A stretch of 64,000 bases of DNA from Hormiphora californensis (lineage: Eukaryota; Animalia; Ctenophora): positions 1,240,001 to 1,304,000 of the forward strand of contig CM035360.1 of NCBI GenBank assembly GCA_020137815.1, in the 5' to 3' direction. Every line of letters starts with the position of its first letter. The stretch's first letter is position 1. A program made the position numbers and the translations under genes. The notes beneath the pieces are model-generated. The model did no database searches. It was not told where the DNA came from and saw only the letters and a list, made by a program, of their open reading frames with translations. Positions 12,217-58,117 of this stretch are shown in pieces.

Positions 12217-15200
12217 ATGAAACCCCAGCAATAATAGGTAACCTGATATTGTACTCTTAGAGAACGGTACCTGGCTTTCTTTCTCTGTAAGCCCTCCTAA
12301 CTCTCCTTAACATGAGGAAGGGTTGAGTAAGGCAACTCAAGGGAGCTGTAGGCATTAAAAAACACAAGTCTGCCCATTATATATCGGGGTCTGCAGAAAG
12401 GACTCAACTTTCTATATTTCTAAACTCCCCCCTTCCCTCCCAGGACAAGTTACACCCCAGCTACCTCATCCTTTGATACACCCTCAACATCCTTTGGCAG
12501 GGTACCCCCCTCCACACCAAGATCTACAAAACGGCAGAGAAACGAGAGCTGCTCATCTAACCTTGATTCATCTTTCTACAGTGAGTACATTGTACAGTGA
12601 GTATATGTACATTGTACATTGAGTACATTATACATAACTGAGTGCAGTGAGTGTATGTAGAAGGTGTTGTGATTCTTGGTTTGAGTAGTAAAGTTGTTAT
12701 AGTGGTGTGTGTGGTGAGTGGAGGTTGTGAGAGAATAACTGCAGTGGTGAAGTGACGGCGGTTTCAATTGTTATATATTAGAGATAATAGAGGGAGAGAG
12801 AGAAAAAGAGTAAATCTAGAAAACAAAGATAGCATGTAACCAGTTTTTAACATGCATTTACATTGCGTGATGTTTCACACTGAGTGCGTTGCTATGGTAA
12901 CCATGTGATAGTTGATACCTCACTCTTGGGTATCATGGGGTCCCTTATTTTTCTCCCACACATTACATAACCTAGTTGCCCGTGGTAACATGTGTCTCCC
13001 CTTCTTACCCCACTGCAGTGCCCCAAAAGGGGTACAGAACTGTACAAAACTCTTTCTCTATCTCTCTTTCTCTCGCTCTCACTCCCGGGATCTCCCCTTT
13101 TCCACTATCCTTTTATCTCCCTCTCTCCCTCCCGTGCTCACTTTCTCTCTATCCCAGACCCCTCTATTTGTCCGTGATCCCCCTCCCCTCCCAACCCAGG
13201 TCCAGATACCACTCCGACGCTAAGCGGTGGAAGCAGATGTAGAGCCTCTAAATCGTTAGGATCCCTTACTGGCAGGTGAGAATCGTTATTTTTTATTTTT
13301 TGTTTCTGTCTTTCTGGTATCTTTATTATTTCTTTTTTCTTCTTGTTTTTCCTTATTTCTTTTTTTTCCTTGTTTTTCTCCAACACACCTTACAACCTGG
13401 TCTGAGACCCTATCATGAAAACAGTAAACGCAATCCCGCTCAGGACCAATTGATTACTTCGTTGAATTTCAGGAAATTAAAGAGAATGGAAAGAGAAATT
13501 ATAATTCTAGGTTCTTTAGCCTCCCAACACAACTCCATATATGGCTGTGTCCATATAAGGAGTTGTGTTGTGAGTTGCCCGGGCCCCACCACGTGGAGGT
13601 AAACCTAGGTAGGAGCACTCTCTTTCTTAATGTTCTCTCTCTCTTCCCCCCTTCTATCTCTTTTTCTGATTTCTCTCTCTCTCTCTCTCTCACTCTCTCT
13701 CTCTCACTCCCTCTCTCTCTCACTCTCTCTCCCCCTCTCTCTCTTTCTCTCTCTCCACAAACTAAGAAAGAGACTGCTCCAGCTGGGTGCCCTGGTGCCC
13801 GTGACCGGAAGGCGATGCCCGACCACTAGCCGCCTGTTGATAGCGGATGGCGTGGCTGATTCGGACGGTGCAACCGGTACACAAAGCGGTAGGACGGCAG
13901 GGGAAGAGAGAAAGAAATAGGTTCTCTCAACCTCCCCCCACACATCCCGAAATCGGAGGCGAGTAGCATGCCCGGCTCAGGCATGCTCCCCACCTATAGC
14001 GAAGTAATCATTGAGCATAGCAGAGTTGTGTTTGCTGAAACCACGACAGAACCTCACACCAGGCCATCTTCATCTCGGCGTGGCTGAGGGCAGTTACCCG
14101 ACTTATCGTGTAGAAGTCAGACTAGATGGGGCAACAAGAGAGTGAGGCTGTGTGTGTTGTACAGCTGCTTATATAATGAGGGCTAGTCACGTGGTGTGCG
14201 TGGTGATCACGTGGTGTGCTTGTTGCGCTGTAGCAGCACAATGTGATGGTCACGTGATGTGCGCCTCCTGCACTGCCGTGCTGGTAGAAGCACTGGGGTC
14301 GTGTGGGGGAGGCGGCATGATCTAATAGCAAGGATAGAGAGCAAAGGAGAGAAAAGAAAGGGAGAGATAGAGAGATACTGTTGAACAAACGGATAATCTC
14401 TCACCGCTACAGCTGGCTACGGTCTGAATAGCGAGAGACAGAAAGAAATAGGATAGAGATATAATTATAGAGCGACAGAAGTGTGAGAGAGAGATAGATG
14501 GAAGTATGACGTCATGCCCCAGAAATAACTGTTCATGATTGGTTGCTAAGCAAACAATAACAGTCGCTGCAACAAGATGGGGGGGGGGTGCAGCCCAAAA
14601 AAAACCAACCATACCCTGGATTTTCAAAAGTGTTGATTTTTTTTGGTCGTTTTTGATTTTTTTTGATTTTTTTTGATCTTTTTTGATTTTTTTTGATCTT
14701 TTTTGATCTTTTTTTATTTTTTTAAATTTCTTTTGATCTTTTTTTATTTTTTTGATCTTTTTTGATTTTTTTTGATCGTTTTTGATTTTTTTAAAATTTT
14801 TTTGATCGTTTTTGATTTTATTTGATCGTTTTTGATTTTTTTTGAACTTTTTGTTCAACATTAAACAATCAAAAAAAATCAAAAACGATCAAAAAAATTC
14901 AAAAACGATCAAAAAAATTCAAAAAAAATCAAAAACGATCAAAAAAAATCAAAAACGACCAAAAAAAATCAAAAACGACCAAAAAAAATCAAAGAAATTT
15001 CAACCAAAAACGACCAAAAACGACCAAAAAAACCAACCATACCCTGGGTTTCGGAAAAAGTTTGAATTTTTTTGGGGCTGCACCCCCCCAAGATGAATTT
15101 GGTGCAATAGCCAATACATGCTAAATGTAGAATTCAACTTCAAAACAAAGCAAAATGGTTTGGTGCCCTTCGGCAGTACAAGAGACTGAAATGAAGTCCC

Positions 15201-17170
15201 CCACTCACCTGAGCAATCCAACATTCATTAATGAAAATAATAATTATCTCCCGTTCTCACTTCTCCAGACACCAAACACTTCCTAGTTCCTATAACTTCC
15301 TAGATATTCTAACAAATAATTGTTCAACATGTCTAGACGGCAGTTTCCTTTGGGATTATATGTGCATAATTAACTCTCCACACACGTTTCTTTCCTTCTG
15401 GAATATTCTAAACTATCATCCCATACTCTTTTCTTTTTCCACTCTCTTCTTTCTCCGTGGACCGTGTGTTGTTACATGCGTCCTTGTGTCGATTATTATA
15501 ACTCTGGTGTTGATTTGCTTTGTTCGTTATCTTCATCTCTCCCTGAATATATTTTTAGTTGCCTAGCTAGACTGTGTTTCGCGCGCCCCGCCCGCAGATG
15601 TAAAGGAGGGTTAGAACATCACAAATTTTTAGTCCTAAATCCAACTATTCCTCAGGTTTTGTACCCTATTAGCCAGCTCTGAGGACAGCTCTCTTGATCT
15701 CAATTATGCGTGCTCCAAATTGGGCGTTGCTAAGCGACGGATCTATGATATCACAAACGTGTTAGAGGGTGTTGGTCTGATTGAGAAAACTACCAAGAAT
15801 CTAATCAGATGGAAGTGAGTTTTGGGAACTTTTGGGATTTTTTAATCGAGGAATAAAATTCAATCCGTCACCTCCAAGCTCATTTTATGATAATGCTATT
15901 ATTTTTACCATGGCAACCAAAGGTAACATAACACTCTACTCTCCCCCAGGGACAACTCAGGTGATTCAGAAAGTGCAAACTCTTCTGCGGAAAAAGAAAA
16001 ACAGAAAAATATCACATTATTACAGTCAGAAATTTATTCTTTGCAGTTACAGGTAGCTATTAATTATTTAATTGTACTAGTTTCAATTACTAATGAATAC
16101 TTAGCTTGTTCATCTATCTTACCTCTGGGACAGTACAACATTCAATTCAGAGATGGTACCACCCTGTACTTTTGTTTGTTTCCCATCACACCCCCCCCCC
16201 CCCTATCAGGACCAGCACCTAGAAAAGATAATGGACTCTCTGAAAGCGGACCTGGATTCCATCTCACCCGAATTAGGAAAAGAAAACCAAACGTAAGCTG
16301 CCCAAATATTCAGCCCCCTGATTCCTGATCTATCTTTAACCCAACAAGAATGATATAATAGTATTTCTTGATCCAGAGTTGTACTGAATCTTGCTTTTAA
16401 CACGCCCCTTCCCCATAGAAAATGCTACAAATACATAACAAATGATGATCTGAACAGTATACCAGAGTTTTGGAGTAAAATGGTGATTCCCATCCCAGCT
16501 CCAAAACAGGCTAAATTGGAAGTTGTTGACAAGGAACCGGGACAAACGGTAAGAGTTTAGACTGACTTATAATGTGACTTAGATTGAATCCCTACTTGTA
16601 CAACCCCCCCCCCCCCCCCCCCCCCCGATAAAAGGTGAAATTACATATATCCCCCTTTCTCAGGATATCAAGATAAGGATCAGTAGCGAAGACACGCCCT
16701 TCGTTGTCTACGAGCCCATCTACCCGCTCAGTCCTGCTGAAATTAAACCACTACTCCCAACTTTGGAAGACCTTCCTCCTCCCCATCACCACCATCTCCC
16801 TCAGCCCTCAATAACAGCCCCCTTGGCACCTCCCCCAGGATCCCTTCCAGAACCCTCCCTCGCCTCCTCCTCATCCTCCTCAATGACCCCCACAAAAAGG
16901 GGAGTCCTCTCAACCCAGACCCTCACCGCAACGCCAGTCAAGACTCCGGGCAAGGTGTCACGGCATTCCCTCGAGTTTCCATCACCCCTCTCGGTGTTCA
17001 GGTCACCGTTCAAGTCACCCCTCAGTTCCCCGTACAAGGTGTCACCCTACAAGTCACCTTTTAGGAGAAAGTTGTCATTTGGTATGCCCGCCAGTCCAGA
17101 TCTAAATTTTGACTTTTTCTCCGGGCTGGGAGATAACGAGGGGATCAGAGATTTGTATGATGCGTGGTAG
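12217..17170 (+). CDS. E2F: E2F transcription factor (typical E2F1-5 type with Rb-binding C-terminus)
   Basis: Exons 12444-12580, 13200-13275, 15656-15814, 15950-16052, 16210-16292, 16419-16548, 16664-17170 join in frame: [56 protein letters not shown]; marked-box-like YITNDDL..VIPIPAP..LEV; C-terminus [16 protein letters not shown]. The first exon (12217-12237) is tentative and needs a homopolymer correction. Confidence 0.93.
13752..14143 (-). ncRNA. Candidate structured transcript nested antisense in E2F intron (family unidentified)
   Basis: Minus-strand TATATAA at 14175-14169, Inr-like TCACTCT with A at 14143, several hairpins, no convincing ORF, near-identical second copy at 23311-23702. 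Confidence 0.35.
14143..14260 (-). promoter_or_regulatory. TATA + Inr + CACGTG E-box cluster
   Basis: TATATAA begins 32 nt upstream of the Inr A; three CACGTG within about 85 bp upstream of the TATA; the same layout occurs at 23702-23836. Confidence 0.5.
14580..15088. mobile_element. Fold-back MITE with internal 10-bp repeats
   Basis: TIR GGGGGGTGCAGCCC; (TTTTTGATCG)n facing (AAAAACGATC)n; direct repeat CAAGATG at both flanks (5-7 bp TSD); absent from the duplicate region near 25070. Confidence 0.85.
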
Positions 17171-17630: not shown

Positions 17631-18282
17631 AGAGAGCAGAGAGCAGAGAGCAGAGAGAGGGACAGTTATTCAAAATGCTAGCCTTTTGATCAAATTTGTA
17701 AGGGAATTTCATTGTGTCTCGATGTTTGTTTTTGGGGATCATTGGCGAATATTTTAGCTCGAGATCGAGGAAAGAATACAGAGAGTTGAAAAGCAGGGAG
17801 TTGGGAGTTATTATATATGCACGCTCCAGAATAGTCTTTGTATATTCTTTGTACATTTAGTGATAGTATAGACTATTATAGAGCTGTTAAAGTAGCGTAA
17901 TAATCAGATAATACTTTTCAGTGCTTCTTTTCTCTCCCTAAATACTCATGATTTTCTGGCCCGTTTGTGTATCTTTATCCCTGTCAATTAAATCGAGTTG
18001 ATGATCCCAATTTTATCGTTTAAGGAAAGCTCTTACATATAATACCTTGACAGTCAATTATTTTATTAGCAATAGTTTTACATATATTGTAGACAGGCAA
18101 TTAAAGTATGTAAAAACTTAGTGATGGAATAGTTTATTAGTTGTGGGATAGTGTGTGACGAGTCGGAGTATAACAGTACAGATACACAACCGTGTCATGT
18201 TCTGACCCTCTGCGGTGTGAGAGAGGGTCGAGCAATATGTTTTGTTATTCGTTTGCTGATAGAAAAAAAGAAAGATTATATA

Positions 18283-18355
18283 CAGTCGGTCCCCGATTTA
18301 CCGGGAAAGGTACCTTTTTTTTCCCCAAGCATCCCGGTAAATCAGGGTCCGTCTG
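18283..18355. mobile_element. Short palindromic MITE
   Basis: TA-CAGTCGGTCCCCGATTTACCGGG..CCCGGTAAATCAGGGTCCGTCTG. Confidence 0.7.
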
Positions 18356-18698
18356 CAGTACCTGTGAAGTATCTGTGAAGTATAGAAAGCTGTGATGTGT
18401 CCAATTCTCTTACAACTGTTCAACAAATCAATGTTTTTTAGAGAGCGTGAGAAATCAGAAGATTGGCCGATTCAATATATATCTCTCTCCTTGTTTTTCT
18501 CTTATTGCAGCACATCTTCTGCTTTTTCATTGATACGTGCAGTCTTTGTGCGTTCATCTCCTCTGATTTTGAAGCGGTAGCTCAGCTTCCCCATCTATTC
18601 AGTCCTCTTACATCCCTTCTAACATTGCCCAATTCCCCCAACATTCGATTCCATAACATAGCTCCCTTAAATATTTACCTCTCTCTCCATAGCCAGCC

Positions 18699-18847
18699 AT
18701 GTCTCATTTCGGAGAGGTAGATCCTATGTGGAACTACCAGCTGTGTTTCATCTCAGTGGCAGGTTTGCAACCGACACAGATCTGCTGACCATTGGAGCGT
18801 ATAGGACCGAAGCTGGGAAACCTTGGGTACTACCATGTGTTCGACAG
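18699..18847 (+). pseudogene. Isolated degenerate copy of aspartate aminotransferase exon 1
   Basis: Near-identical to 25759-25917 but with a 2-bp insertion and loss of the ANKVN codons; no downstream exons follow. Confidence 0.85.
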
Positions 18848-19223
18848 GTAAACTACATTCCTGGGTGACAAGTCCCAAAATGTGTGTTGAAAGGGGCTAT
18901 ACAATACGGAATACCCTGTGCCCACATCCCTATCTACTCTGTTCCCAGTTCCTGACGGTCGCTAATATCTGGCACCATTGGTCGAGTCTATATGTCCCCC
19001 GTCTATCGTCTCTCTTACGAATTGTATACCCCTCCCCCAGCAGCCTATAGCATGCAACTTTAAATACTAACATCCGGATAGAATAGTACACTCTAGTAGT
19101 ACACTCTACTGGGTGGCAGCTAGGTACACAAAACTCTTTCTCTCTATATCTTTCTCAGCCGCTCTCACTCCCGGGAGCTCCCCTTCTTCCACTATCCCTT
19201 TATCTCCCTTTCTCTAACTCCCT

Positions 19224-19271
<48 letters not shown>

Positions 19272-19349
19272 TTCTTTTATCTTATTTCCTCCTTGTTTTT
19301 TTCTTATTTCTTTTTTTTCTTCTTGTTTTTTCCCACACTCACCTTACAG

Positions 19350-22300
19350 CCTGGTGGGACCTATAAAAAAACAATAACGCAAAAACCCCTCGGACCAATT
19401 GATTATTCCTTTGTTTGTCCACAAAAAGGAATAAAGCCCCAAAAACTTTTTAAATTCATTTTTCAGCAAACCCTTTAATTCTTATTTGAATTTAAAACCC
19501 TTTGTAATACTGAAAAAGTTTTGAGAGACGATCGAGGGGGGGGCAAAATGAGAGGGGGGGGTGGCGGGGGGGAAAAAGGGAAAAGGGGGGAGGGGGGCAA
19601 GGGGAGAGAGAAGGGGAAGGGAAAAGGGGAGGAGGATGGGAGGAGGAAGGGGAACCCGGGGGGGGGGGGAGGGCCGAGGGGGGCCCCGGGAAAAGAGGGC
19701 CCGTTTTTTCAAATGCAACCCTTTTTTATAAAATTTTTGAAAAGGGAAATTTTATTGGGGTTTTTCTCGATGTTTTTTTTTTGGGGATCTTTGGGCCCGA
19801 ATATTTTAGCTCGAGATCGGGGGGAAAAAAAAATACAGAGGGGGTTGGGAAAAAAGCAGGGATTTGGGGGTTTTATTTTTATGCAGTTTCCAGAATAGTC
19901 TTTGTAGTTTCTTTGACTTTTGGGTGATAGTATGACAAATTATAGAGCTTTTTTTAAAAGGGGTATTTTAAAAATCAAAAAACTTTTTCATTGCTTTTTC
20001 TCCCCAAAATACTCATGATTTTCTGGCCCGTTTGTGAAATTTTCCTTTATCCCTGTAAAATTAAATCGATTTTATGACCCCAATTTTTAAATCGTTTAAG
20101 GAAAAAGCTTTTTACTTTAAAAAACCCTTTGACATTTCAATTTTTTTTTTTGGGAAATATTTTTACATATTTTGTAGACAGGAAAATTAAAGTATGTAAA
20201 AACTTAGGATGGAATGTTTTTTTTTTTTGGGATAGGGGTTTTGGGCCCCAAAGTCGGAGTATAACAGTAAGATTAACCAACCGGGGGGGGTTCAATTTTT
20301 GACCCCCCTTCTGGGGTTTTGTGGGGAGAGAGGGTTTTGGGGGGAAAAAATTGTTTTTTTTATTCGTTTCTGATAGAAAAAAAGAAAGTTTTATAAACAG
20401 TGGGGCCCCGATTTCCCGGGGGGAAAAGGGGTCCCTTTTTTTTTTTCCCCAAAGCACCCCCGGGTAAATCGGGGGGCCCGGGTTTCCTGGCAGTACCTTG
20501 AAGTATCGGGAAAAAGGTTTTTCAGAAACTTTTGGAGGGTGGGTTTTCCAATTCCTTTACAAATTTTTAACCCAAAAAATTTTTTTTTTTTTTAGAGGGG
20601 GGCGGGGAGAAATAAAGAAAAATTCCCCCGATTCAAATAATATCTCTCCCCCTTTTTTTTTCTTTATTGACAGCACATTTTTTGCTTTTTTTTGAAAACG
20701 GCGGGTCTTTGTGCTTTTCATCCCTCTTGTTTTAAACTTTTAACCCCCCCCCATTTCCCCCCCCAAATTTGGGGGTTTTTTTTTCCCTCTTTAAACCTCC
20801 TTTTTTTTTAACATTCCCCCAAATTCCCCCCCCAAAATTGGGTTTCCCAAATAACATAGCTCCCTTAAAAATATTTACCCCCTTTTCTCCATACCCCACC
20901 CAATGGCTCTTTTCGGAAAAGGTGGGAATTCCCTATGTGGAACTCCCAGCTTGTTTTTCATCTCATTTTGGCGGGGGTTTGGGGGGCAACCGAAAAACAA
21001 TCTGTTTGACCATTGGACTTTATAGGCCCCGAAGCGGGAAAACCTTTGGGTACTACCATGTTTTTTCGACGGGTTTTAAAATACTTTCCCTTGGGTGGAC
21101 AAGTCCCAAAATTGTGTTTTTGGGGAAAGGGGTAATTTAAACAAAATAGGGAATACCCGTGCCCACATCCCTATCTACTCTTTTCCCCAATTTCCCCGGG
21201 AGGGTTTCCCCCTTTAATATCGGGGAAACCTTTGGTTTCGGGTTATTTTTGGTCCCCCGTCTATCTTTTTTTCCTTACGAATTGTATACCCCCCCCCAGC
21301 GGGCCTATAGAAATCCCAAATTTAAAACTAAATCCGGTTTAGAAAAGAAAACCTCTGTAGTACCCCTTTTACTGGGGTGGCAGTGGGTAACAAAACCCCT
21401 TTCTCCTAATATCTTTTTTTCCCGGGGGCCGCTCTCCCCCCCGGGGACCCCCCCTTTTTTCCCCACATCCCTTTTTTTCCCCTTTTCTCAAAACCCCCTT
21501 TAATTCTCTCTCCCCTCTCGCCCTTCCCTCCTTTTCCCCCCTTCGTTTTCTTTTATCTTATTTCCTTCTTGTTTTTTTCTTATTTCTTTTTTTTCTTCTT
21601 GTTTTTTCCCACACTCACCTTACAGCCTGGTGTGAGATCCTATCATAAAAACAGATAACGCAATCCCACTCAGGACCAATTGATTACTTCGCTTGAATTT
21701 TGGGAAATTGAAGAGAATGGAAAGAGAAATTATGGTTCTAGGTTCTTTAGCCTCCCAACACAACTCCATATATGGCTGTGTCCATATAAGGAGTTGTGTT
21801 GTGAGGGGCCCCCGGCCCCCCCCGGGGGGCCTTGGGGCCCCTTTTTAAAACCGGGGCCCCCTTTTTTTTTTTTTTTTTTTTCCCCCCCCCCCCCTCTTTT
21901 TTTCCCCCCCCTTTTCCCCCGGCCCCCCCCTTTTTTCCCCCCCCCCCCCCCGGCCCCCTTTTCCCCCCATTAAAAAAAAAATTTTTTTTCCCCTTCTCCC
22001 CCCCCCCCCCTTTTTTTCCCCCCCCCCTTTTTTTCCCCCCCCCCCCGGGGGGTCCCCCTTTCTCTCTCTCTCTCTTTTTTCTCCCCAAAAAACCCCTTTT
22101 TTTTTTTTTTTTGGGTTTTTTCCCCCTCCCCCCCGGGGGTTCCTTTTTTGGCCCCCTGGGTTTTTTCCCCCTTTTTTTTTTGGGGGGGGCCCCCCCCCCC
22201 CCCTTTTTTTTTTTGGGGGCCCCTTTGGGGGTTTGGGGCCCCCCCCCCTTTTTTCCCCCCCCCCTTTTTTTCCCCTTTTTTTTTTTTCCCCCCCTTTTTT

Positions 22301-23280
22301 TTCCCCCCCCCGGGGTTTCCCTTTCCCCCTTTTTTCCCCGGGGGTCTTTTTTTTGGGGGCCTTTTTTTTTTTTCCCCCCGGGGTTTTTTTCCCCCCCCCT
22401 TTTTTCCCCCCCTTTTTCTTTTCCCCCTTTTTTTTCCCCCCTTTTTGGTACTCCCCCCTTTCCCCCCCCCTTCTTTTTCCCCCCCTTCCCCCCGGGGGGG
22501 TTTCCCCCCCAAAAAAACCCGGGGCCCCGGAAAAACCCCCCGCCCCCCCCCTTTTTCCCCCCCGGGGGATTCCCCGGGGGGGGGGGAAGGGGGGGGGAAA
22601 AAAGGTTTTGGGGGCCCCCCCCCGGGGGGGCGGGGGGCCCCGGGGGGGTTCCCCAACGGGGGGGGGAAAAAAAAAAAAGGTTTTTTTCGCCCCCCAAAAC
22701 CCCCAAAAAAATTTTTTAAAAGGGGGGGGCCCCCCGGGGGGGGGGCCCCCCCTTTTTTTACTGGGGGTTTTTGGGGGGGGGGGCCCAAAAAAGGGGGGCC
22801 CCCCTTTTTTTTTGGGGGCCCCAAAAAAAGGGGGGGGGAAAAAAGGGGGGGGTGGGGGGGGTTTTGGTTTTTTTTTTTAAAAAGGGGGGTTTGGGGGGTT
22901 TGGGGGTTTTGGGGGGGGGGGGGTTTTTTTTTCCCTTTTGGGGAAAACCCCCCCCCCGGGGGGGGTTGGGGGAAGAGGGGGGGGGGGGGGGGGAAAAATT
23001 TTTAAAAAAAAAGGGGAAAAAAAAAAAAAATTTGGGGAAAAAAAGGGGGGGGGGGGGGGGGGGGAAAAAAAAAAAAAAAAAAAAAAAACCCCCCTTTTTC
23101 CTTTTTTTTAAAAAAAAAGTTTTTAAGGGGGGGGGGGGGAAAAATTTATTTTTTTTTTTTTTTTTTTTTAAAAAATTTAAAAAAAAAAAAAAAAACCCCT
23201 TTTTTTTTAAAAATTTTGGCGGGGAAAATTTTTTTTTTTTAAAAAAACCCAAAACCCCCAAAAATTTTTTCCCCCTTTCC
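19350..23280. other. Low-quality homopolymer-inflated sequence (probable assembly artefact)
   Basis: About 19690-21560 is a noisy re-reading of about 17660-19300 with stretched runs; 21810-23270 is almost only G/C/A/T runs. Confidence 0.9.
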
Positions 23281-23310
23281 TCTCTCTCCTCTCTCTCTCT
23301 CCTCTCTCTC

Positions 23311-23702
23311 TCTCCACAAACTAAGAAAGAGACTGCTCCAGCTGGGTGCCCTGGTGCCCGTGACCGGAAGGCGATGCCCGACCACTAGCCGCCTGTTGAT
23401 AGCGGATGGCGTGGCTGATTCGGACGGTGCAACCGGTACACAAAGCGGTGGGACGGCAGGGGAAGAGAGAAAGAGATATGTTCTCTCAACCTCCCCCCAC
23501 ACATCCCGAAATCGGAGGAGAGTAGCATGCCCGGCTCAGGCATGCTCCCCACCTATAGCGAAGTAATCATTGAGCATAGCAGAGTTGTGTTGTCTGAAAC
23601 CACGACAGAACCTCACACCAGGCCATCTTCATCTCGGCGTGGCTGAGGGCAGTTACCCGACTTATCGTGTAGAAGTCAGACTAGATGGGGCAACAAGAGA
23701 GT
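23311..23702 (-). ncRNA. Second copy of the candidate nested structured transcript
   Basis: About 6 substitutions versus 13752-14143 by manual comparison; TATA at 23734-23728. Confidence 0.35.
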
Positions 23703-23959
23703 GAGGCTGTGTGTGTTGTACAGCTGCTTATATAATGAGGGCTAGTCACGTGGTGTGCGTGGTGATCACGTTGTGTGCGTGGTGATCACGTGGTGTGCTT
23801 GTTGCGCTGTAGCAGCACGCTGTGATGGTCACGTGATGTGCGCCTCCTGCACTGCCGTGCTGGTAGAAGCACTGGGGTCGTGTGGGAGAGGCGGCATGAT
23901 CTAATAGCAAAGATAGAGAGCAAAGGAGAGAAATGAATGTGCCAGTGAGAGAAAAAGGA

Positions 23960-24031
<72 letters not shown>

Positions 24032-24112
24032 TCTTTAACAAACGGCTATTTTCTCTCGTTTCTCTCTCACCGCTTTGGTCTGAATCGTGAGAGACAGAAA
24101 GAAGTGTTAGAG

Positions 24113-24937
24113 GGGGGGGACGACATGTTAATTGTTAATAAATCACCTCTTTTTTTCGATTTTGTTAATTAACGTTAATTAACAAAATTAACAAAGTTAA
24201 CAAATGCGAAAAGACTGTTCTTATTGGCTGATAATACAACTTTGACTGGTTTGATTTTATAGTTTAATGACTTACCTAACACATATAAACCCAAACAAGG
24301 CCTTTTCCGATAACCCAAGTCCGACATACAGGTTTTTTGGCTCAAAATCGATAAAAATCCAAAAGTTACAAATATTTCAATTTAGCGTAAAAAATCTCAC
24401 TTTAACGTAATTTTTTTCATTGGTAATCGATTCTTAGTGCTTAATAAGATGGTATACAACGCTTCTGTTGGAAAAAGAAATAAAATTTTTCCAAAATCAA
24501 TTTTTCGGTCAACGATTGAAAATTTGCTTCGCTACAAATCCTTGTGTTTTTTTAGAAAAATACATTTTTGGGATATTTTTCGTTTTAAGGTAAATTCATG
24601 AGTCTTATTTAGTTTTTAGGGTTGGAAAATGTGGATTAGGGTCATTTGACTTCCATTGCAGTATAGTTTGGCTTGTTTTTATTAAGATTTACACAATGGA
24701 ACAAATCGCTGTAGAAAAGCCGTAGTAGAGGTAGTAGTGGTATGTAAATCGTGCAAAAGGAACAACTTTGCTCGCAGAACAAGTGTTAAATACCAAAAAA
24801 AGGGCTAAAGGGGGTTTAGATGGCATAAATGGCATTTGTTAACGTTTGTTAACTTTTTGTTAATTTTGTTAATAAATCACCTGTTTTCTCGATGTTAATA
24901 TTAACAAAGTTAACAAAATTAACATGTCGCACCCCCC
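24113..24937. mobile_element. Non-autonomous DNA transposon with 8-bp TSD
   Basis: TIR GGGGGG..CGACATGTTAATT; TSD TGTTAGAG at 24105-24112 and 24938-24945; absent from the E2F-intron copy. Confidence 0.85.
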
Positions 24938-25758
24938 TGTTAGAGAGAGATGGAATATTATAGAGAGATGGTTTGAATGTAGCGGTAGATAGATGGAAGT
25001 ATGACGTCATGCCCCAGAAATAACTTGTCATGACTGGTTGCTAAGCAAACAATAATAATCGATGCAACACAAGACAAGCAATTGGTGCAATAGCCAATAC
25101 ATCCCAAACGTAGAATTCAACTTCAAAACAAAGGAAAATGAATGGCATGGTATGGCGCCCTTTGCCAACTGCCAAGATACTAATTAATTTCTCCTACTCA
25201 ACTGAACAATCCAATAATTATCTCGCGTCCTCTAAAGACACCCAAACACTTCCCATAACTGCATCCTAAAGATGTTCTAACAAAGAATTGTATGTCTAGA
25301 CGGCAGTTTCCTTTGGGATTATGTGCATAATTAACTCTCCACACACGTTTCTTTCCTTCTGGAATATTCTAAAATATCATCCCATACTCTCTTCTTTCTC
25401 CGTGGACCGTGTGTTGTTACATGCATCCTTGTTTCGACTACTCTGGTGTTGAGTTTCTTGTTCGATACCTGAATTTTATATTTTAGTCCTAAATCCAATT
25501 ATTTCACAGGTTTTGTACTCTGTTAGCCAGCTCTGAGGACAGCTCCCTTCAACTCAGCTATAATGCACACTCGAAATTGGGCGTTGCTAAGCGACGGATC
25601 TATGATTTCCCAAGTCCCCCCAACACTACCCAAGTCCCCCCAACACTACCCAAGTCCCCCTAACATCCCGCCTAACATTGCTCCCTAACATACCCCTGCT
25701 TCTAACATCCCCTGGCACCCAAGCTGCCTAACATACCCTCTCTCTATTATAGCCAGCC

Positions 25759-28700
25759 ATGTCACATTTCGGAGAGGTATCCTATGTGGAACTACCTGCT
25801 GTGTTTCATCTCAGTGGCAGGTTTGCAGCCGACACAGATGCTAATAAAGTTAACCTGACCATTGGAGCGTATAGGACCGAAGCTGGAAAACCTTGGGTAC
25901 TACCATGTGTTCGACAGGTAAATCACAGCGCTGGCAGGCGCCCTGGGGTCAATATTCTATATGATTTAGGGAGAGGTTTGGAGCCCGTGACACAGTCCAG
26001 GGTTAATCAACTCAAACTAAATATCAAGTTTGTCCTGAGATATAATTGCCCTTCAATTAAATATCTTCTACCCCGTGCTTCAGGCTGAAAGTATCCTAGC
26101 ATCAGATGAAACTATTAACAAGGAGTACCTCTCCATGTCGGGTCTCCAGTCTCTTTGTGACGCGGCCATGAGGCTGGTGCTGGGTGAGAGTAGTCCTGTG
26201 ATTCAGGAGGATCGAGCTGTAGCGCTCCAGACCCTCAGTGGAACTGGTGCTCTCTACATCTGCTTCCAGGTACTGATGACGTCATAACGCGTGACGTCAT
26301 AACGTGTGACGTCATCTTGTGTGATTTGTGACGATTCAATGCTCAATGTTGATGGAATTGTTCATTCATCTGATTAACTACGAACTTCATTTCATTGTTC
26401 AATATTTTAGTTTAAAGTTCGTTGTGGCCTACCTACTAAGTAACACCCCCCCCCCATTTTCAGTTTATTGCCCAGTTCTAACACCCCCCCCCCCCCCCAT
26501 TTTCAGTTTATTGCCCAGTTCTAACACACCCCCCCCCCCCCATTTTCAGTTTATTACCCAGTTCTAATACCCCCCCCCCCCCATTTTCAGTTTATTGCCC
26601 AGTTCTAATACCCCCCCCCCCCCCATTTTCAGTTTATTACCCAGTTCTAATACCCCCCCCCCCCCCATTTTCAGTTTATTGCCCAGTTCTAACACCCCCC
26701 CCCCCCCCATTTTCAGTTTATTGCCCAGTTCTAACACCCCCCCCCCCCATTTTCAGTTTATTGCCCAGTTCTAACACCCCCCCCCCCATTTTCTGTTTTG
26801 GGACCACCTAACACCCCCCCCCCCTCATTTTCAGTTTATCGCCCAGTTCTATGGCGGTTGTAAAGATATCTATGTCAGTGACCCATCATGGGGTAACCAC
26901 AAGCTGATGATTGATAGGATTCCCGGGGTTAACTTTAAACAGTACCCTTACTACAACTCTCAGGTATGAAATTACTTGTCAATGACATGTAGTACATGAC
27001 AATTAGTATGACAAGTCTTGTCATACTACATGACTGCAATGTCGTGCGACGTGCACGGTTCGGAGAGGGCATTCTTTTGTGAGACAAGAAATCTCCGATT
27101 ACTTTAATTCTCTTGCTGGGAAAAGGGATTTGTGTTTTTTAGCCCAGCTGCTACTTGGGCGATTCTTATCTTCTCGTAAGAGAGGCAATATTCTACCACC
27201 ACACCATATTAAATCATTATGATTTTATGCGAAGGGAGGCTGGTGTCTTATTACCCAAACTCACAAGGTTTGTCGCTATCCCGTTTGGAGGGTATATAAA
27301 GGGGCATGAACCCATCCTAACAGCCCTGTATGGGCGCCGGTGTTAGTTCATAACTACCCGGTAGAAACTGTTGGAGTAGGTCGGGAGTGCATTATAATTA
27401 CCGTATGGCCCAATGTTGCTCCCGTCTTGTTTCCTCAGTTTCAAAATGCGTAAAGGATCCATGATCTTTACAGTTTCAAAATGCACGTAATGGATCCATG
27501 ATCTATACAGCGTTACTACAGTGTTATATAATACAGTGTCATTACAGTTGAACCATGCTCAACTGTGATGTGTTCAGTGTTCCATGAACATGAACATACA
27601 GAGTACAAGTACAGGTACAAATATCAAATACAAATAAAAAATAGGGGAGAACTCTCCCCACCCTTTTTGTTAACCCTATAACCGTTTTCATCTCTCTCCC
27701 GTCTTTTTTCATCGAATCCCTCGCTGCATTCTTCCCCATTAAATTTCCAATTCTAATTAAATCTCCAACTAATATTAGAGATACCTATTTCAATTAAATT
27801 AGTAATTACAATCTCTCTCAGACCATGGCTGTGGATGTTGATGCCATGTGCAAAACTCTGGAGGAGGCTGCTGAGGGTAGTGTAGTTCTACTACACGCTT
27901 GTGCCCACAATCCAACAGGTGTGTACTTCCCTTAGTTAAAGTAACAATCTCACCCTACCCTCTCGCCTAGTTAAAGTAACAATCTCACCCTACCCTCTCG
28001 CCTAGTTAAAGTAACAATCTCACCCTAATCTCTCCCCTAGTTAGAGTAACAAACTCACCCTGATACCACCCCTATTATTATACAGGCATTGATCCAAGTA
28101 GGGACGATTGGGTAAAGATAGCTGCTGTCTGCCAAAAGAAGAATCTTCTGGTTATCTTTGATTTAGCCTACCTCGGTAAGAAGAGTCTTTTTTATCGCAT
28201 GTTGTACCCATTTCTATAGAGAGAGAGAGAGAGAGAGAGTTCTTCCCTACCTAATTCATACTGGCAATATCCCTCTACCTGATCATCGCCCTTCCTTTCG
28301 TTGCTAAGTAACGCGGCACTTGATGACTAAAAAACAACCCAAACTCTAACCCTCCCCTCGTTGCTAGGTTACCAAACTCTAACCCTCCCCTCGTTGCTAG
28401 GTTACCAGACTCTAACCCTCCCCTCGTTGCTAGGTTACCAAACTCTAACCCTCCCCTCGTTGCTAGGTTACCAAACTCTAACTCTCCCCTCGTTGCTAGG
28501 TTACCAAACTCTAACTCTCCCCTCGTTGCTAAGTTACCAGACTCTAACCCTCCCCTCGTTGCTAGGTTACCAAACTCTAACCCTTCCCTCGTTGCTAGGT
28601 TACCAAACTCTAACCCTTCCCTCGTTGCTAGGTTACGCGTCTGGTGACTACAACGAGGATGCATGGAGTATCCGATACTTCGCAGACCTAGGCATGGAGT

Positions 28701-29612
28701 TCTTTGTTTGTCAGAGCTTTGCTAAGATCATGGGACTATACAGTGAGAGAGTTGGAGCGCTCCATTTTGTAGGAGCAACCAGTGAAATTGCACACAAGTG
28801 TCTTAGCCAGGTACAAAATGGGGGATTAGGGCAGGGCTCGCCACAATACCCACTTCTCATTACTTACAGGATCATTCCTCAGCTTCCTAAATCATGTTTA
28901 AATCCTGTTTAAAATCATGTTTAAATCATGTTAAAAACCTGTTTTTAACCCCCCTACCAGATGAAGATTATTGTCCGGTCCATCTACTCCAATCCTCCCT
29001 CTCATGGAGCCAGGATTGCCAGTCTGTGCCTAAATAACCGGGATCTGAGAATAGAATGGGAGGAATGCTTGAAGGAGATGCATGCTAGGTAAGTCACCGA
29101 TGGGAGGCCGTCATTTCTTGAGTTGAGGTTGAGGTCCTGGCCAAGAGGCTTTTCTCTTGGTTTCCATCAATAACTCTTCCTCAGGATCCGAAGAGCCAGG
29201 ACTTACCTTCACACGGCGCTGAAGATGGCAAACGTGCCAGGAAATTGGGATCATATCCTCTCTCAAAATGGAATGTTCTCTTACACCGGTGAGTAGTCGT
29301 GTTTTGGTGTTGAGAGGCCTGCATACTTTATATACCCGTGTCTTGTCTCAACCCTTACTTAACAAGCCTGCTCTTGATTCTTTGTCAACTTCATTCTTCA
29401 AGTGGGAAATAGGAAAACGATAAAATTTTGATTGAATTCTAATATGATCTGTTTCAGGTTTGACGAAGGCCCAGTGTGAAGTGTTGATTGAAAAACATCA
29501 CATTTATCTCCTAAAATCTGGTCGAATCAGTATGTGTGGTGTCACTGAAAGTAATGCTAAATACGTCGCTGAGTCCTTCAAGGATGCCATCGAAACGGCC
29601 AAGGAGAACTAA
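25759..29612 (+). CDS. GOT1: Aspartate aminotransferase, cytosolic type (GOT1-like), 9 exons
   Basis: Exons 25759-25917, 26084-26269, 26835-26963, 27822-27918, 28086-28175, 28632-28810, 28961-29088, 29185-29288, 29458-29612; motifs KVNLTIGAYRT, QTLSGTGAL, DPSWGNH, LLHACAHNPTG, FDLAYLGYASG, SFAKIMGLYSERVG (PLP lysine), RSIYSNPP, GMFSYTGL, SGRISMCG; no transit peptide. Confidence 0.95.
26440..26850 (+). repeat. About 41-bp tandem array of the intron 2/exon 3 junction
   Basis: Unit CTAA(C/T)A-polyC-ATTTTCAG|TTTATTGCCCAGTT; AG ends at 26463, 26506, 26549, 26590, 26632, 26674, 26716, 26756, then one degenerate unit, then the real site at 26834. Confidence 0.95.
27930..28060 (+). repeat. About 36-bp intronic minisatellite, about 4 copies
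   Basis: TAGTTAAAGTAACAATCTCACCCTACCCTCTCGCC repeated in GOT1 intron 4. Confidence 0.9.
28339..28636 (+). repeat. 33-bp tandem array of the intron 5/exon 6 junction
   Basis: Unit ACTCTAACCCTCCCCTCGTTGCTAG|GTTACCAA; AG ends at 28367, 28400, 28433, 28466, 28499, (28532 mutated), 28565, 28598, and the real site at 28631. Confidence 0.95.
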
Positions 29613-30358
29613 AAACAATCCAATGTTTGGTTGAGTTTTTATACGAAGAACTTTTAGATTTTTGTGTGTAAAGTATGTTTAACTAAATAATGGCTATGTG
29701 TTACCGTTCATTCTAGGACGATTCCGGCGTAGCAGGGGTAATTTATTCATATTGTCAATGTCTTGTTCTGTAGATGTCACCATGTTTTTTCAATTTTAAA
29801 ACACCCTATAAAAGCGTTTTATTTTTCAAATCGTCAGGATATTTGTTAGGGGATGATGAGGTTTATCGCTTGTGGAGCAGGACCATCCGATGACAGATCA
29901 CCGTGAATAAATTAGCTGGGCCTCGTTGTTGGTGGTTTCAAGCGCGCGCGTTTGAATTGCGCGTTACATAATGAAAACTTGCGCGTTCGCGCGGGATAAA
30001 ATAAGGACAAAAGTCGCGTTGGATGACGTAACCTTTGGTGATGAGAAGTTTGCCTCTTGACACAGCCCATTGGCTTACTACTTCCGTGGGCAATTACCGG
30101 CCATGTGGAACTCCAATTTCGATACGACGTATGCCCAAGTTGGTTGCTAAGCACTATCGATTATGCTCTGTTGTTGGTCAGGTTGATACCGAAAGATTCT
30201 AAGTTTAAACTTACTTACAGCAGCTTTTGCCTTTCATACATGACGAATTATCTGACGTAACGGTAAATCATCAGCTCTTTTAAAATCCTCAAACGCACGA
30301 GACTCATTTCTTGCTTGTTTGAATCTTGAATAATCGTAATATCACTTTTTGCTTGTTA

Positions 30359-42992: not shown

Positions 42993-45867
42993 ATGATTAC
43001 ATTGGTCCTGCTGGTGTTGGTAACTGTTGGCCGGGTCCAAGGTCGTATACCCCATCCCACTGACTGCTCAAGGGGACACAACCAGGTAACCTCCATATTC
43101 TTGTTTATACCAACTCCCTTTCACACAGGGCCCCCAAACCTACTGCGGTGTCCAGTATAACCAACACACCAACACACCCTCCCTGCAGGTTCAAACCTAT
43201 TGTGGTGTCCAGTATAACACCCACCTTGCAGGTTCAAACCTACTGTGGTGTCCAGTATAACACCCCCACCTTGCAGGTTCAAACCTACTGCGGTGTCCAG
43301 TATAACCAACACCCCAACCCTGCAGGTTCAAACCTACTGCGGTGTCCAGTATAACCAACACCCCATACCTGCAGGTTCAAACCTATTGCGGTGTCAGGTT
43401 CCTTTGCAAGTGTGTCAAGAACGTATCGACATACTATGACGACCTAAACCCCACCTGTGCTTACGAGCTGAATATCCATGAAAAGCTGACTACATTCGTC
43501 CCCTTTGTCCTGAATGAAGAAGAAGCCCTGAAATCCACACCTGACGTTGATCTGGAGGAAAATGAAACAGAGGAAGAGGAAGATATTTGGGATCTGATCC
43601 CTAACCCACCCGTTTATCTGGATGATGCTGAGCCAAAAAGACCAAGTAACTACCACATTACTACCACAATCACTCACTGCCCTCACCATGGCAACCGCGA
43701 AAAGAACAAGTAGAATGATGATTGTATCATAGTCGGACGCCGGTTGACTGTGTTACTGAGGGGGGTAGTTTTTAGATTGTTGAAACATACCGTAAGTTGG
43801 GGTAACTTTGTACCACTTTTTAGCATTCTCCTAAAATTACTCCTTGCTAGAACCACACTCGAAAATTTTTGAACCAAATAATCCCGTTCCAGACCCAGTA
43901 CACCAGATATAACTAGTGAAATTTTTGGTCCCCTCTCATTTGATTAGATTAATTAACACGTATTTTAGTGTAAGTGGGGTTTTAGGGCATGGGGTAACTT
44001 TGGAATGAGGGTGGGGTAACTTTGGACACATTTTGCAATGATAAATAGATGAACATAAAATGTTTAGGTTTTCGATATGAGCGTTTGTAGAGTTGCCTTA
44101 GACCCTCTCTGACTTGTTTAGGACCATATGACTAAGATTCAGCCCAATCCACACCCGTTTTCATCCATATATTCGCTAAGGTAGTGAAAAAACGAGGATT
44201 TGGTCTATTTTATGGAGCTAAATCACAAACAACCGTCCTAAAACACATCAACCTTCAATAATTTGGGGGTCCCTCATCCACCCTCTAGCTTGGTAGGTGG
44301 TATTGGCCCGCTAGGCGGCAGTATTAGTTCTTTTTACTGAATCGGTCTGCCAGGAAGTGGCCGAACACTTATGGGTACTGGCTAAATAAAGGAGTTTTGG
44401 TGCCTGTGTTCCTGCATAGATTGTCCACAAGAACTAATAGACTCGCCTAGAGGGTCAATACCATCTACCAAGCTACAGAATGGATGAGGGACCCCACATT
44501 ATTGAAGTTTGATGGGTTTCAGGTCGGATTTCTATGAATTAGCTCCATGAAGTAGAACTAATTCTGGTTTATTTACTACCTTAGCGAATAGATCGATGAA
44601 AATGGGCATGAATCGGGCTAAATCTTGGTCAGATGGTTCTAAACAAGTCAGAGAGGGTTTAAGGCAACTCTGCAGACATCAAAAGTTCAAAACATGTAGT
44701 ATGGGGTAACTTTGGCACCCCGTCCAAAGTTACCCCAAAATTCAAAATATGGTGGGGTAACATTAGCCAACCCAATTAGTCTCAATTAAAGTAATTGGTC
44801 GGATTTGAAAAATGGTGCCCCGAATTATTTGATCGAAACCCTTCCACTCTATGGAGCAAACTTGATTCGATCATTTGCCCGGTCAGATCTATGGTACCCA
44901 TTTTGATTTGAACATTTTTAGCGATTTTGACATCAATTATGTTTGACCCTAATTAGGAGCTAATTAGCATAGATTTGGAAAAATAATTGTACCGTTAGTT
45001 AGACATTTGTGGGTCAATTACTTGTACACCCAAAAAGTTTTCCAAATCTCTCGTTATCTGTTGGTAATTTTGGACTAAATCCAAATTTTGAAAGTGTCCA
45101 AAGTTACCCTGCAAAACAAAGTTACCCCAACTTACGGTATATCCTAGATACTAGATAGAAAACCCTATTTCAGTGGACCCGGACACCTTTGGGTGTGGGT
45201 GGGAGTGGGACGAGGATCTGTTGACTGTCCGACTGGCAAAGATCAAATCTCGGAATGGGCGCTGGTTGAAAGTGGGCCTACCTGGGAATATTATTGCAGT
45301 ACTCAAGGCTGTCCACTACCGCAGTAAGTGTGCAGTAGCTCTACTTTATTTTTGTCTTCTCACACTCAATTTTTATCCTAATCGTTTTGTCTTCTTTTTA
45401 CTGCAGTAAAATTTCGAGTAATCAAAACTCTGCATATTTTTGTTTATACATCGGATATTTGTTAACTAATCTCCACATTTTCTCTCCCAATTAGCAAACG
45501 GTGAGTGCCAGTATATTAACCAGCTACCATTCGATGATTGCCTTGAGCCAGCAACACCTGGACAGACCCGGGACAGAGATGAAGACCTCTTATACTTCCA
45601 AGTTAGAATATCTGATTGGAGGCTGAGAGATACAGTTATCAATACGATAGACCAAGATTACAGGATGTATTATCAAAGAAAGAGTTCCTCATGTTATAAA
45701 GGCCAAAAGGTAAGCTGTGCGACACGCAGTAGATATATATTGTCTGTCTGAGCGCACTTTTTTGAGATTTAAGACGGCGCCAGACAGTACATGTTCATTA
45801 ACGTTTCTAGGTAGATTCCTCTCCTATATATAATACTACTACTATCACCTACCAATCTCTCTTTTGA
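42993..45867 (+). CDS. Uncharacterised secreted Cys-containing protein, 5 exons
   Basis: Exons 42993-43085, 43375-43645, 45174-45323, 45495-45709, 45811-45867 join in phase; signal peptide MITLVLLVLVTVGRVQG; no family recognised; the last exon is tentative. Confidence 0.7.
43135..43395 (+). repeat. 43-49-bp tandem array of the intron 1/exon 2 junction
   Basis: Unit TATAAC..CCC..TGCAG|GTTCAAACCTAYTGYGGTGTC; AG ends at 43188, 43231, 43276, 43325, and the real site at 43374. Confidence 0.93.
43790..45137. mobile_element. pogo-like non-autonomous transposon in intron
   Basis: TIR CCGTAAGTTGGGGTAACTTTG; TA on both flanks; internal GGGGTAACTTTG motifs and an internal inverted block. Confidence 0.9.
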
Positions 45868-55865: not shown

Positions 55866-58117
55866 TAGTTAGGGGACAAAGGCTCATGAATGGGAAAAAA
55901 TTTGCAACAAGCTAATTCCTTCACTAATGTGTTCCTAAGGGTCTCCACTAAGCCCCCAGAAAAGTGTAACGCGGTGTGAGGGGTGCAACATGGTCATTTC
56001 CGGTTGGGCGTGGCCGCGCATGGTGAAGATTGACACTTTCGTTCCTTTTGGGTTAAATAGTAAAATGAGGACATTAAAATGTGCAAAATCGACGGGTTAG
56101 TGGGGGTAGAACATGTCAAAATTAAAATTCCATGATTATTTTATGAGATAATTGCATAATTAGCATAATTAGTGCTCGCGCAAGCTAAATGTTATGGTTT
56201 ATGGGGTACGATGGGTTTGGACCCAGAAAAAGATCTACTCCGACCGAAAACATCGTGTTAGTAGGGGTAGAGCATGTCAGACTTTTAATTAAACCATTTT
56301 CTAATGAGATAATTGCATAATTAGTAGACTAATTATCGAAAAAGTTTAAAAATTGGAACTTTGGATCCGGAAAAAGATCTACCCCGACCAAAAACAGCGT
56401 GTTAGTGGGGGTAGAGCATGTCAAAATGACCCTCAAACCATTTGCTAATGATATGACCCTCCCAGATACCCCTCTGATCCTCCCAGATACCCTTCAGACC
56501 CTACCTGATACCCCTCTGACCATCCCAAATAGCCCTTAGACCGTGCTAGATATCCCGCAGACCATACTAGATACCCCTCTGACCATCCCAGATACCCCTG
56601 AGACACTACCTGATACCCCTTTGACCGTCCTAGATACCCCTCAGGCCGTGCTAGATATCCCGCAGGGCGCAGACCCTACTAGATACCTCTCTGATCCTCC
56701 CAGATACCCCTCAGACCCTACCTGATACCCCTCTGACCATCCCAGATAGCCCTTAGACCGTGCTAGATATCCCGCAGACCCTACTAGACACCTCTCTGAC
56801 CATCCCAGATACCCCTCAGACCCTACCTGATACCCCTCTGATCCCACCAGATACCCCTCAGACCCTACCTGATACCCCTCTGACCATCCCAGATACCCCT
56901 CAGACCCTACCTGATACCCCTCTGATCCCACCAGATACCCCTCTGACCGTCCTAGATATCCCTGAGACCGTGCTAGATACCCCTCTGACCATCCCAGATA
57001 CCCCTCTGACCATCCCAGATACCGCTCCGGCCGTGCTAGATACCCGTGAGACCCTATCTGAAACTCCTCAGACCCTACTAGTTACCCATAAGACCCTAAC
57101 TGATACCCCTAAGATCCAACTAGATAGCCCTTTGACTTGATTCCCCTCAGACCGAGCTCAAAGGGGTATCTAGCACGATCAGAGGGTCTAACACCGTGCT
57201 AAATACCTCTCAAAGCATGCTAGAAACCACTCAGATTTTCTGCATCATCTGTATTTATCACGGTCTAAGGGCTATCTGGGAGGGTCAGAGGGGTACCTAG
57301 CATGGTCTGAGGGCTATCTTGTAGGATATGAGGGGTATCTAGGTTGGTCAGTGAGGTATCAGGTAGGGTCTGAGGAATATTTAAGAGGGTTAGAAGGGTA
57401 TCAGGTAGGCTCTGAGGGGTATCTGGAAGGATCAGATGGGTATCAGGTAGGGTCTGAGGGTATCAGGTAGGGTCTGAAGGGTATCTGGGAGGATCAGAGG
57501 GGTATCTGGAAGGGTCATATCATTAGCAAATGGTTTGAGGGTCATTTTTACATGCTCTACCCCCACTAACACGCTGTTTTTGGTCGGGGTAGATCTTTTT
57601 CCGGATCCAAAGTTCCAATTTTTAAACTTTTTCGATAATTAGTCTACTAATTATGCAATTATTTCATTAGAAAATGGTTTAATTAAAAATCTGACATGCT
57701 CTACCCCTACTAACACGATGTTTTCGGTCGGAGTATATATCTTTTTCCGGGTCCAAACCCATCCTACCCCATTAACCATTAAATTTACCTTGCGCGAGCA
57801 CTAATTATGCTAATTATGCAATTATCTCATAAAATAATCATGGAATTTTAATTTTGACATGTTCTACCCCCACTAACCCGTCGATTTTGCACATTTTAAT
57901 GTCCTCATTTTACTATTTAACCCAAAAGGAACGAAAGTGTCAATCTTCACCATGCACGGCCACGCCCAACCGGAAATGACCATGTTGCACCCCTCGCACC
58001 GCGTTACACTTTTCTGGGGGCTTAGTGGAGACCCTTAGGGACACATTAGTGAAGGAATTAGCTTGTTGCAAATTTTTTCCCAGTCAGGGCCTAAATCTGC
58101 CTTTAATCCCCTAACTA
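55866..58117. mobile_element. Fold-back element, Academ-like, with internal minisatellite
   Basis: About 640-bp inverted arms; TAG..CTA termini; 3-bp flank ATC on both sides; core of GATACCCCTCTGACC-type repeats in both orientations. Confidence 0.9.

Follow-up and report, generated by a model that had tools for sequence, protein, structure and literature searches.

A tandem array of 3′ splice-site copies in intron 2 of a GOT1-type aspartate aminotransferase gene, probably a tolerated mirage minisatellite

The DNA analysed here is a 64,000-nucleotide stretch of Hormiphora californensis contig CM035360.1 (assembly GCA_020137815.1, positions 1,240,001 to 1,304,000 of the forward strand), which we call the window and number from its first letter. 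It includes a gene for an aspartate aminotransferase (AAT) of the cytosolic type (GOT1-type), and in the second intron of this gene a series of tandem copies of the 3′ splice site stands ahead of the site that opens exon 3. These copies, here called decoys, are the subject of the present analysis. The gene has nine coding exons on the + strand, which were placed by a tblastn search of the window with P0001, a public transcript-derived protein, by the joints of RNA contigs and by inspection of the boundaries. They are listed below together with intron 2, the numbering of which counts coding exons only; the sign ^ marks an actual or potential splice junction.

25759-25917, + strand: exon 1, coding.
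26084-26269, + strand: exon 2, ending in phase 0 at TTCCAG^gtactg (tblastn of P0001).
26270-26834, + strand: intron 2, 565 nt, GT..AG; P0001 reads ...YICFQ^FIDQFYGG across it.
26835-26963, + strand: exon 3, 129 nt or 43 codons, starting TTTATCGCCCAGTTCTATGG; the repeat unit takes its exonic part from the opening 16 nt.
27822-27918, + strand: exon 4, coding.
28086-28175, + strand: exon 5, coding.
28632-28810, + strand: exon 6, coding.
From 28961, + strand: exon 7, coding.
About 29185-29290, + strand: exon 8, coding.
29457-29609 plus stop, + strand: exon 9, coding.

P0001 was found by a search with exon 2, over which it is 100% identical; it is 408 aa long and derives from a transcript-sized Logan contig of 1474 nt. 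The protein begins MSHFGEV, without a presequence, and carries a precomputed match to PF00155 (aminotransferase class I/II), while exon 3 alone matches aspartate aminotransferases in the PDB (best E = 5e-4). The closest named relatives of the protein, with 45-51% identity, bear the annotation “aspartate aminotransferase, cytoplasmic” and come from a sponge, insects, a hemichordate, fungi and a ciliate; closer still, at 69-77%, are eight unnamed relatives. Judged by these similarities, GOT1-type is a fair label for the gene.

Tandem Repeats Finder reports the intron 2 array at 26446-26851 (period 42, 9.8 copies, 91% matches, score 640). Its final copy coincides with the authentic boundary between intron 2 and exon 3, so that the array runs on into exon 3. 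Each repeat unit is composed of a CTAAC branch motif, a poly-C tract, ATTTTCAG and the first 16 nt of exon 3. A parse by motif found ten ATTTTC(A/T)G sites, spaced by 43, 43, 41, 42, 42, 42, 40, 39 and 39 nt, and the units are as follows.

26456-26787, + strand: eight decoy units, each ATTTTCAG^TTTATT(G/A)CCCAGTTCTAA(C/T)A plus a run of 12-15 C; the C run preceding unit 1 is C10.
26463, 26506, 26549, 26590, 26632, 26674, 26716 and 26756, + strand: AG ends of the decoys.
26464, 26507, 26550, 26591, 26633, 26675, 26717 and 26757, + strand: first exon-like bases of the decoys.
26788-26826, + strand: unit 9, ATTTTCTGTTTTGGGACCACCTAAC plus C11TC, without AG; a diverged edge unit.
Exon from 26835, + strand: unit 10, the real boundary; C11TC, ATTTTCAG, then TTTATCGCCCAGTTCTATGG.

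The splice signal CAG is kept in eight of the nine non-authentic units, the exception being unit 9 with CTG. Compared with one another, decoys 1-8 share 27-29 of 29 positions; compared with the real unit, they share 22-23 of 24. Unit 9 has 15 of 24 positions in common with the real unit, and both AGs of the unit (the acceptor CAG and the inner CCCAG) are missing from it. The original prediction, made from the letters of the sequence, had stated that the unit immediately before the real site had lost its AG. This unit indeed has none, but the description as a single loss does not stand, given the 15/24 match and the absence of both AGs. Near-identical interior units next to a diverged edge unit form the pattern of concerted evolution, and the near-identity of decoys 1-8 indicates that the array is probably young.

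The signals of a 3′ splice site are repeated in the decoys. Decoys 2-8 each have an AG-free zone of 26-29 nt and one CTAA(C/T) motif 22-25 nt 5′ of the AG. At the real AG, the AG-free zone reaches 64 nt, because unit 9 is without both AGs, and it includes two CTAAC motifs, one of which (26808) is contributed by unit 9. Pyrimidine content is 0.79-0.95 in the decoys and 0.89 at the real site. RNA structure as a means of hiding the decoys was considered and rejected, since the fold of intron 2 has a z of 0.11.

The coding outcome was determined for the 20 AG dinucleotides that lie at least 60 nt into intron 2 (eight TTTTCAG decoys, eight inner CCCAG sites, three sites 5′ of the array and the real one). 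Splicing to a decoy CAG gives FI(A/T)QF followed by a stop in 8/8 cases, and splicing to an inner CCCAG gives F followed by a stop, again in 8/8. The in-frame TAA lies 16-18 nt past each decoy AG, and the stop is reached five codons (CAG) or one codon (CCCAG) into the extended exon. This bears out the original prediction that there are eight decoy acceptors, each with an in-frame stop, and that any use of a decoy leads to premature termination; the TAA is also, as it had stated, part of the CTAA(C/T) motif of the next unit, 22-25 nt upstream of the next AG. All of these stops sit six junctions upstream of the last exon, and decoy-spliced RNAs are expected to be targets of nonsense-mediated decay (NMD).

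Exon 3 holds a second AG of its own, 12 nt from its start (GCCCAG^TTC; 26847-26851, decoy copy 26476). Its use would delete four residues (FIAQ) in frame, and no such deletion was found in P0001-P0005.

From the stops, a poison switch had been proposed: regulated use of the decoys would set GOT1 output through NMD, and the loss of AG in unit 9 would have been selected to protect the real site. Several properties of the array fit this proposal, namely the early in-frame stop obtained from 8/8 decoys, the make-up of the decoys as complete, strong-looking 3′ splice-site modules, and unit 9, which by being without both AGs doubles the AG-free zone before the real AG. The stops themselves, however, probably do not represent eight separate events. 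The unit ends in ...CCCAGTT, and CTA comes next in repeat and exon alike (CTAACA and CTATGG, respectively). A duplication joint placed on this shared CTA would have turned TTC TAT into TTC TAA in the first copy, and later copies would have inherited it, so that the eight stops would go back to one inherited event. The stop is thus likely a by-product of copying and not a designed switch. For comparison, 14 random codons would include one or more stops with a probability of 0.19 under the local base composition and 0.49 under a uniform one.

Further arrays of the acceptor type in the window bear on the same question. One is found in intron 5 of the GOT1-type gene and the other in a different gene:

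28339-28636, + strand: intron 5 array, 33-bp unit, 9.0 copies, 96% matches (Tandem Repeats Finder).
43135-43395, + strand: third array, in another gene (secreted protein), 49-bp unit, about 5 copies, ..CTGCAG^GTTCAAACCTAYTGYGGTGTC (Tandem Repeats Finder).

The intron 5 unit comprises CTAAC, a pyrimidine tract and TTGCTAG^GTTAC, that is, the acceptor with the first 5 nt of exon 6. Of its decoys, seven are intact, and a further one carries AA in place of AG. The distance of each of the seven to the real site is an exact multiple of 33 nt; all are in frame and free of stops, and their use would insert 11-residue blocks and evade NMD. In two studies (X7 and X8), RNA contigs join 28175 to 28632 and so employ the last copy. 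A stop is therefore not needed for such an array to be tolerated, as the decoys of intron 5 are without one. The 49-bp array fills most of the 289-nt intron 43086-43374, and its four decoys copy CTGCAG together with the first 21 nt of the next exon; the homologues P0122 and P0123 read ..GHNQ^VQTYCGV across this junction. That 64 kb should hold three arrays of the acceptor type, stop-bearing and stop-free ones among them, speaks for a mutational habit of the genome rather than for a device of GOT1.

For the intron 2 array, the poison switch consequently finds no support, and we consider it highly unlikely: its stops are accounted for by one inherited event, the second array of the same gene is stop-free, the near-identical units make the array look young, and one DNA contig (described below) has no decoys. 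A truncated product of about 120 aa was likewise not seen among the six proteins matched, which is weak evidence. A second protein search, in a collection that does not include genomic open reading frames of this species, gave no candidate and is uninformative.

Two DNA samples of the same organism were available as short-read contigs, X1 (2019) and X5 (2025), of which X1 may be the source sample of the assembly. A 73-nt contig of X1 matches 26453-26525 with 0 differences and comprises decoy 1, C15 and decoy 2; a 230-nt contig of the same sample spans 26746-26975, from decoy 8 through unit 9 and the real acceptor into exon 3. X5 contributes a 52-nt contig that matches 26696-26747, also with 0 differences. 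Tandem decoy units are thus present outside the assembly, though X1 may be its own sample. The original prediction had left the array itself to be supported by reads, and the decoy-specific contigs of X1 and X5 now do so, with the copy number coming from the assembly only.

X5 also provides a contig of a different kind, which joins 26445 to 26789 with TCTCC between them. Its depth is 20.3, against 75-100 in the flanks, and its shorter side measures 32 nt. Unit 9, an old edge unit that differs from the real unit at 9/24 positions, is present in this contig as well. The contig hints at an array-less allele that keeps unit 9 and the real unit, and hence at a presence/absence polymorphism. Poly-C indels were seen in the same sample at 26483 and 26695.

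On the RNA side, the canonical 26269/26835 junction is found in P0001 (...YICFQ^FIDQFYGG). Introns 3 to 8 are borne out by the contigs of X7 and X8; these cover exons 3-9 only, and the X7 contig that covers 26850-26956 and joins exon 4 ends at 26850. The contigs of X9 and X12 offer nothing on 26000-27000, and assembled contigs in general drop rare isoforms. A scan of metagenome contigs with exon 2 for an orthologous locus yielded 599 pattern matches, of which 0 were confirmed.

Taken together, the intron 2 array is very probably an acceptor-type “mirage” minisatellite that is tolerated and not used as a switch. Mirages, as described in the parts of the literature concerned with amphioxus, are intron/exon boundaries that have been duplicated in tandem, with examples in Adh3, the globins BflGb6 and BflGb9, troponin C and PGBD5 (PMC3087553, PMC3902484). 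In the GOT1-type gene, a 42-bp piece of the boundary was most likely duplicated by replication slippage or unequal exchange, leaving eight extra tandem copies in intron 2, and either process may be helped by the C10-C15 runs, which on the other strand are runs of G. The last copy would then be chosen through exon definition, being the only one with an exon body and a donor 129 nt downstream, and it would also be favoured by its two branch motifs over the 64-nt AG-free zone. Rare use of a decoy would produce stop-bearing RNAs that NMD would remove, and the array as a whole would be neutral or slightly deleterious.

Several observations weigh against this interpretation. Unit 9, which is old, stands between the young decoys and the real unit, an order not accounted for by a simple tandem duplication of the latter in place. 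The decoys match the real site in local signals (the same ATTTTCAG, a CTAAY of their own and similar pyrimidine content), and their silence is what we infer. Two exon 3 residues of P0001 are not those of the window (A to D and N to K), and the protein thus stems from another haplotype, possibly an array-less one. The contigs of the four RNA or RNA-like runs (X7, X8, X9 and X12) leave exon 2 and the exon 2/3 junction uncovered and are silent on decoy use. The array-less allele is represented by a single contig. Contig cover of the middle of the array (26526-26695) is sparse and short contigs cannot count copies, so that the number eight is that of the assembly; and the assembly is locally unpolished 5 kb upstream, where a homopolymer-inflated stretch (19694-21686) repeats the adjacent 1.75 kb (17656-19405) at 72.7% identity and resembles unpolished long-read sequence. 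Sparse cover and poor polishing could also mean that the array, or most of its copies, is an artefact of assembly and absent from the genome. The decoy sequence carried by the 73-nt and 230-nt contigs of X1 and the 52-nt contig of X5 makes this extremely unlikely, even with X1 as a possible source sample.

An array that is useful without being poisonous would be a further explanation: the stacked modules could recruit U2AF and U2 and so aid the recognition of exon 3, or they could feed new exons or introns. The presence of three such arrays in 64 kb agrees with this, as does the proposal, made in the amphioxus globin paper, that introns can be gained from mirages (PMC3087553, in the part dealing with mirages). 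Yet an allele without decoys seems to exist, and arrays of just this kind are what selection on exons would let stand of neutral tandem duplications; we therefore regard a useful role as highly improbable. On present evidence, the array of intron 2 is an ordinary, tolerated repeat.

As such, it offers a natural test case for the choice of 3′ splice sites, with eight near-perfect acceptors, all equipped with a branch motif and a pyrimidine tract, ahead of the real one, and with a contrast inside one gene between the decoys of intron 2, which would lead to stops, and those of intron 5, which would lead to in-frame insertions. If the last copy is almost the only one used, information on the exon side must outweigh local acceptor signals. 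If the decoys are used, the copy number of the array would become an expression variant. Carried further, mirages could be frequent and variable in the lineage, and the number of perfect decoys could set the share of transcript lost to NMD, which would make the array a heritable and fast-mutating dial of GOT1 expression; we consider this very unlikely.

Other repeats occur in and around the gene. Upstream of the ATG, at 25609-25758, lies a 20-bp repeat with five CTAACA motifs and an acceptor-like TATTATAG^CCAGCCATG. The motif content suggests a possible 5′ untranslated region intron or a trans-splice acceptor, in which case intron 2 would be the third intron. At the start of intron 2 (26277-26315), a 15-bp repeat contains three perfect TGACGTCA palindromes, which we take to be a CRE-like (cAMP response element-like) motif. 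Contigs of both DNA samples branch at these positions, and the palindrome element is thus repeated elsewhere in the genome. Intron 4 contains an array of its own:

27933-28061, + strand: intron 4 array, 35 bp, 3.7 copies, most of intron 4 (27919-28085).

CCTAG is present in these units, but they do not reproduce the real acceptor, and in X1 the repeat reaches a depth of 1000-1600, against about 40 in the flanks. A 32-nt element in intron 3 (27056-27087) and this 35-bp repeat both show contig depths 25-40 times those of their flanks in the two DNA samples, so both belong to high-copy dispersed families. No Rfam match was found in 25500-29800 at E <= 0.1.

The region upstream of the gene, where 17656-19405, 13322-15756 and 21547-25613 are involved, also shows further duplicates of 75-95% identity, and 18722-18859 resembles exon 1 as a pseudo-copy of 82% identity; this suggests either haplotype duplication or misassembly. 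At 56454-57136, a long array of 21/63/105-bp periods stands next to its own inverted copy (57268-57517), and its units contain CCCAG. A doublecortin domain and a rhodopsin-family receptor are also encoded in the window. The AAT gene is also contained in seawater metatranscriptomes, which together with these two products fits a marine animal as host.

Among known systems, the amphioxus mirages are the closest to the intron 2 array. As far as the relevant parts of PMC3087553 describe them, the earliest report of mirages concerned Adh3, where the units measure 10-72 bp. The BflGb6 mirage consists of the 3′ end of an intron plus the 5′ portion of exon 2, with six and three units in two haplotypes. 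AG/GT is kept in many copies, not in all, regular splicing holds by reverse transcription PCR, and the arrays are unstable in length, with interior units evolving in concert and edge units left out (PMC3087553). The intron 2 array shares with these accounts its minisatellite-size tandem copies of a boundary inside an intron, the retention of AG and the authentic copy at the end of the array; it likewise has a homogenised interior and a diverged edge, and its 42-bp unit falls within the 10-72 bp given for Adh3. In amphioxus, copy number varies by haplotype and splicing is undisturbed in the cases described, whereas for the intron 2 array both are only hinted at. Further differences are that the host is not a cephalochordate, that its AAT is at most 51% identical to any named protein, that C10-C15 runs occur in the units, and that 64 kb contain three arrays, of which one gene holds two. 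In the portions of the literature returned by our search, such arrays are described only for amphioxus and for human internal tandem repeats at exon-intron boundaries (PMC2812944).

The array also resembles NMD-coupled unproductive splicing, in that an alternative choice places a premature stop upstream of several exon junctions. Known poison exons and splice sites are conserved, have been shown to be used and respond to regulators. The intron 2 element, unlike poison splice sites, is young and apparently polymorphic, and its sister array is without stops.

With regard to acceptor choice, the rule of the first AG after the branch point and its AG-exclusion zone, as outlined in part of PMC7317903, is reflected in the unit, each of which offers a branch motif, a pyrimidine tract and a first AG, and in the real AG, which has the longest zone (64 nt). 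This rule picks the AG after a chosen branch point; in the form given there, it leaves the choice of the last among nine branch motifs unexplained. A literature search on AG choice once an acceptor has been duplicated brought up general papers on 3′ splice sites only. A final parallel lies in the Rogers model and the human internal tandem repeats, in which, according to the relevant sections of PMC2812944 and PMC3087553, boundary repeats supply duplicate splice sites. Unlike in the Rogers model, no new intron or exon has formed here, and the copies lie inside a pre-existing intron. The intron 2 array thus adds a case to a type of repeat already described, and does so outside the animals in which the type received its name; mirages are not confined to lancelets.

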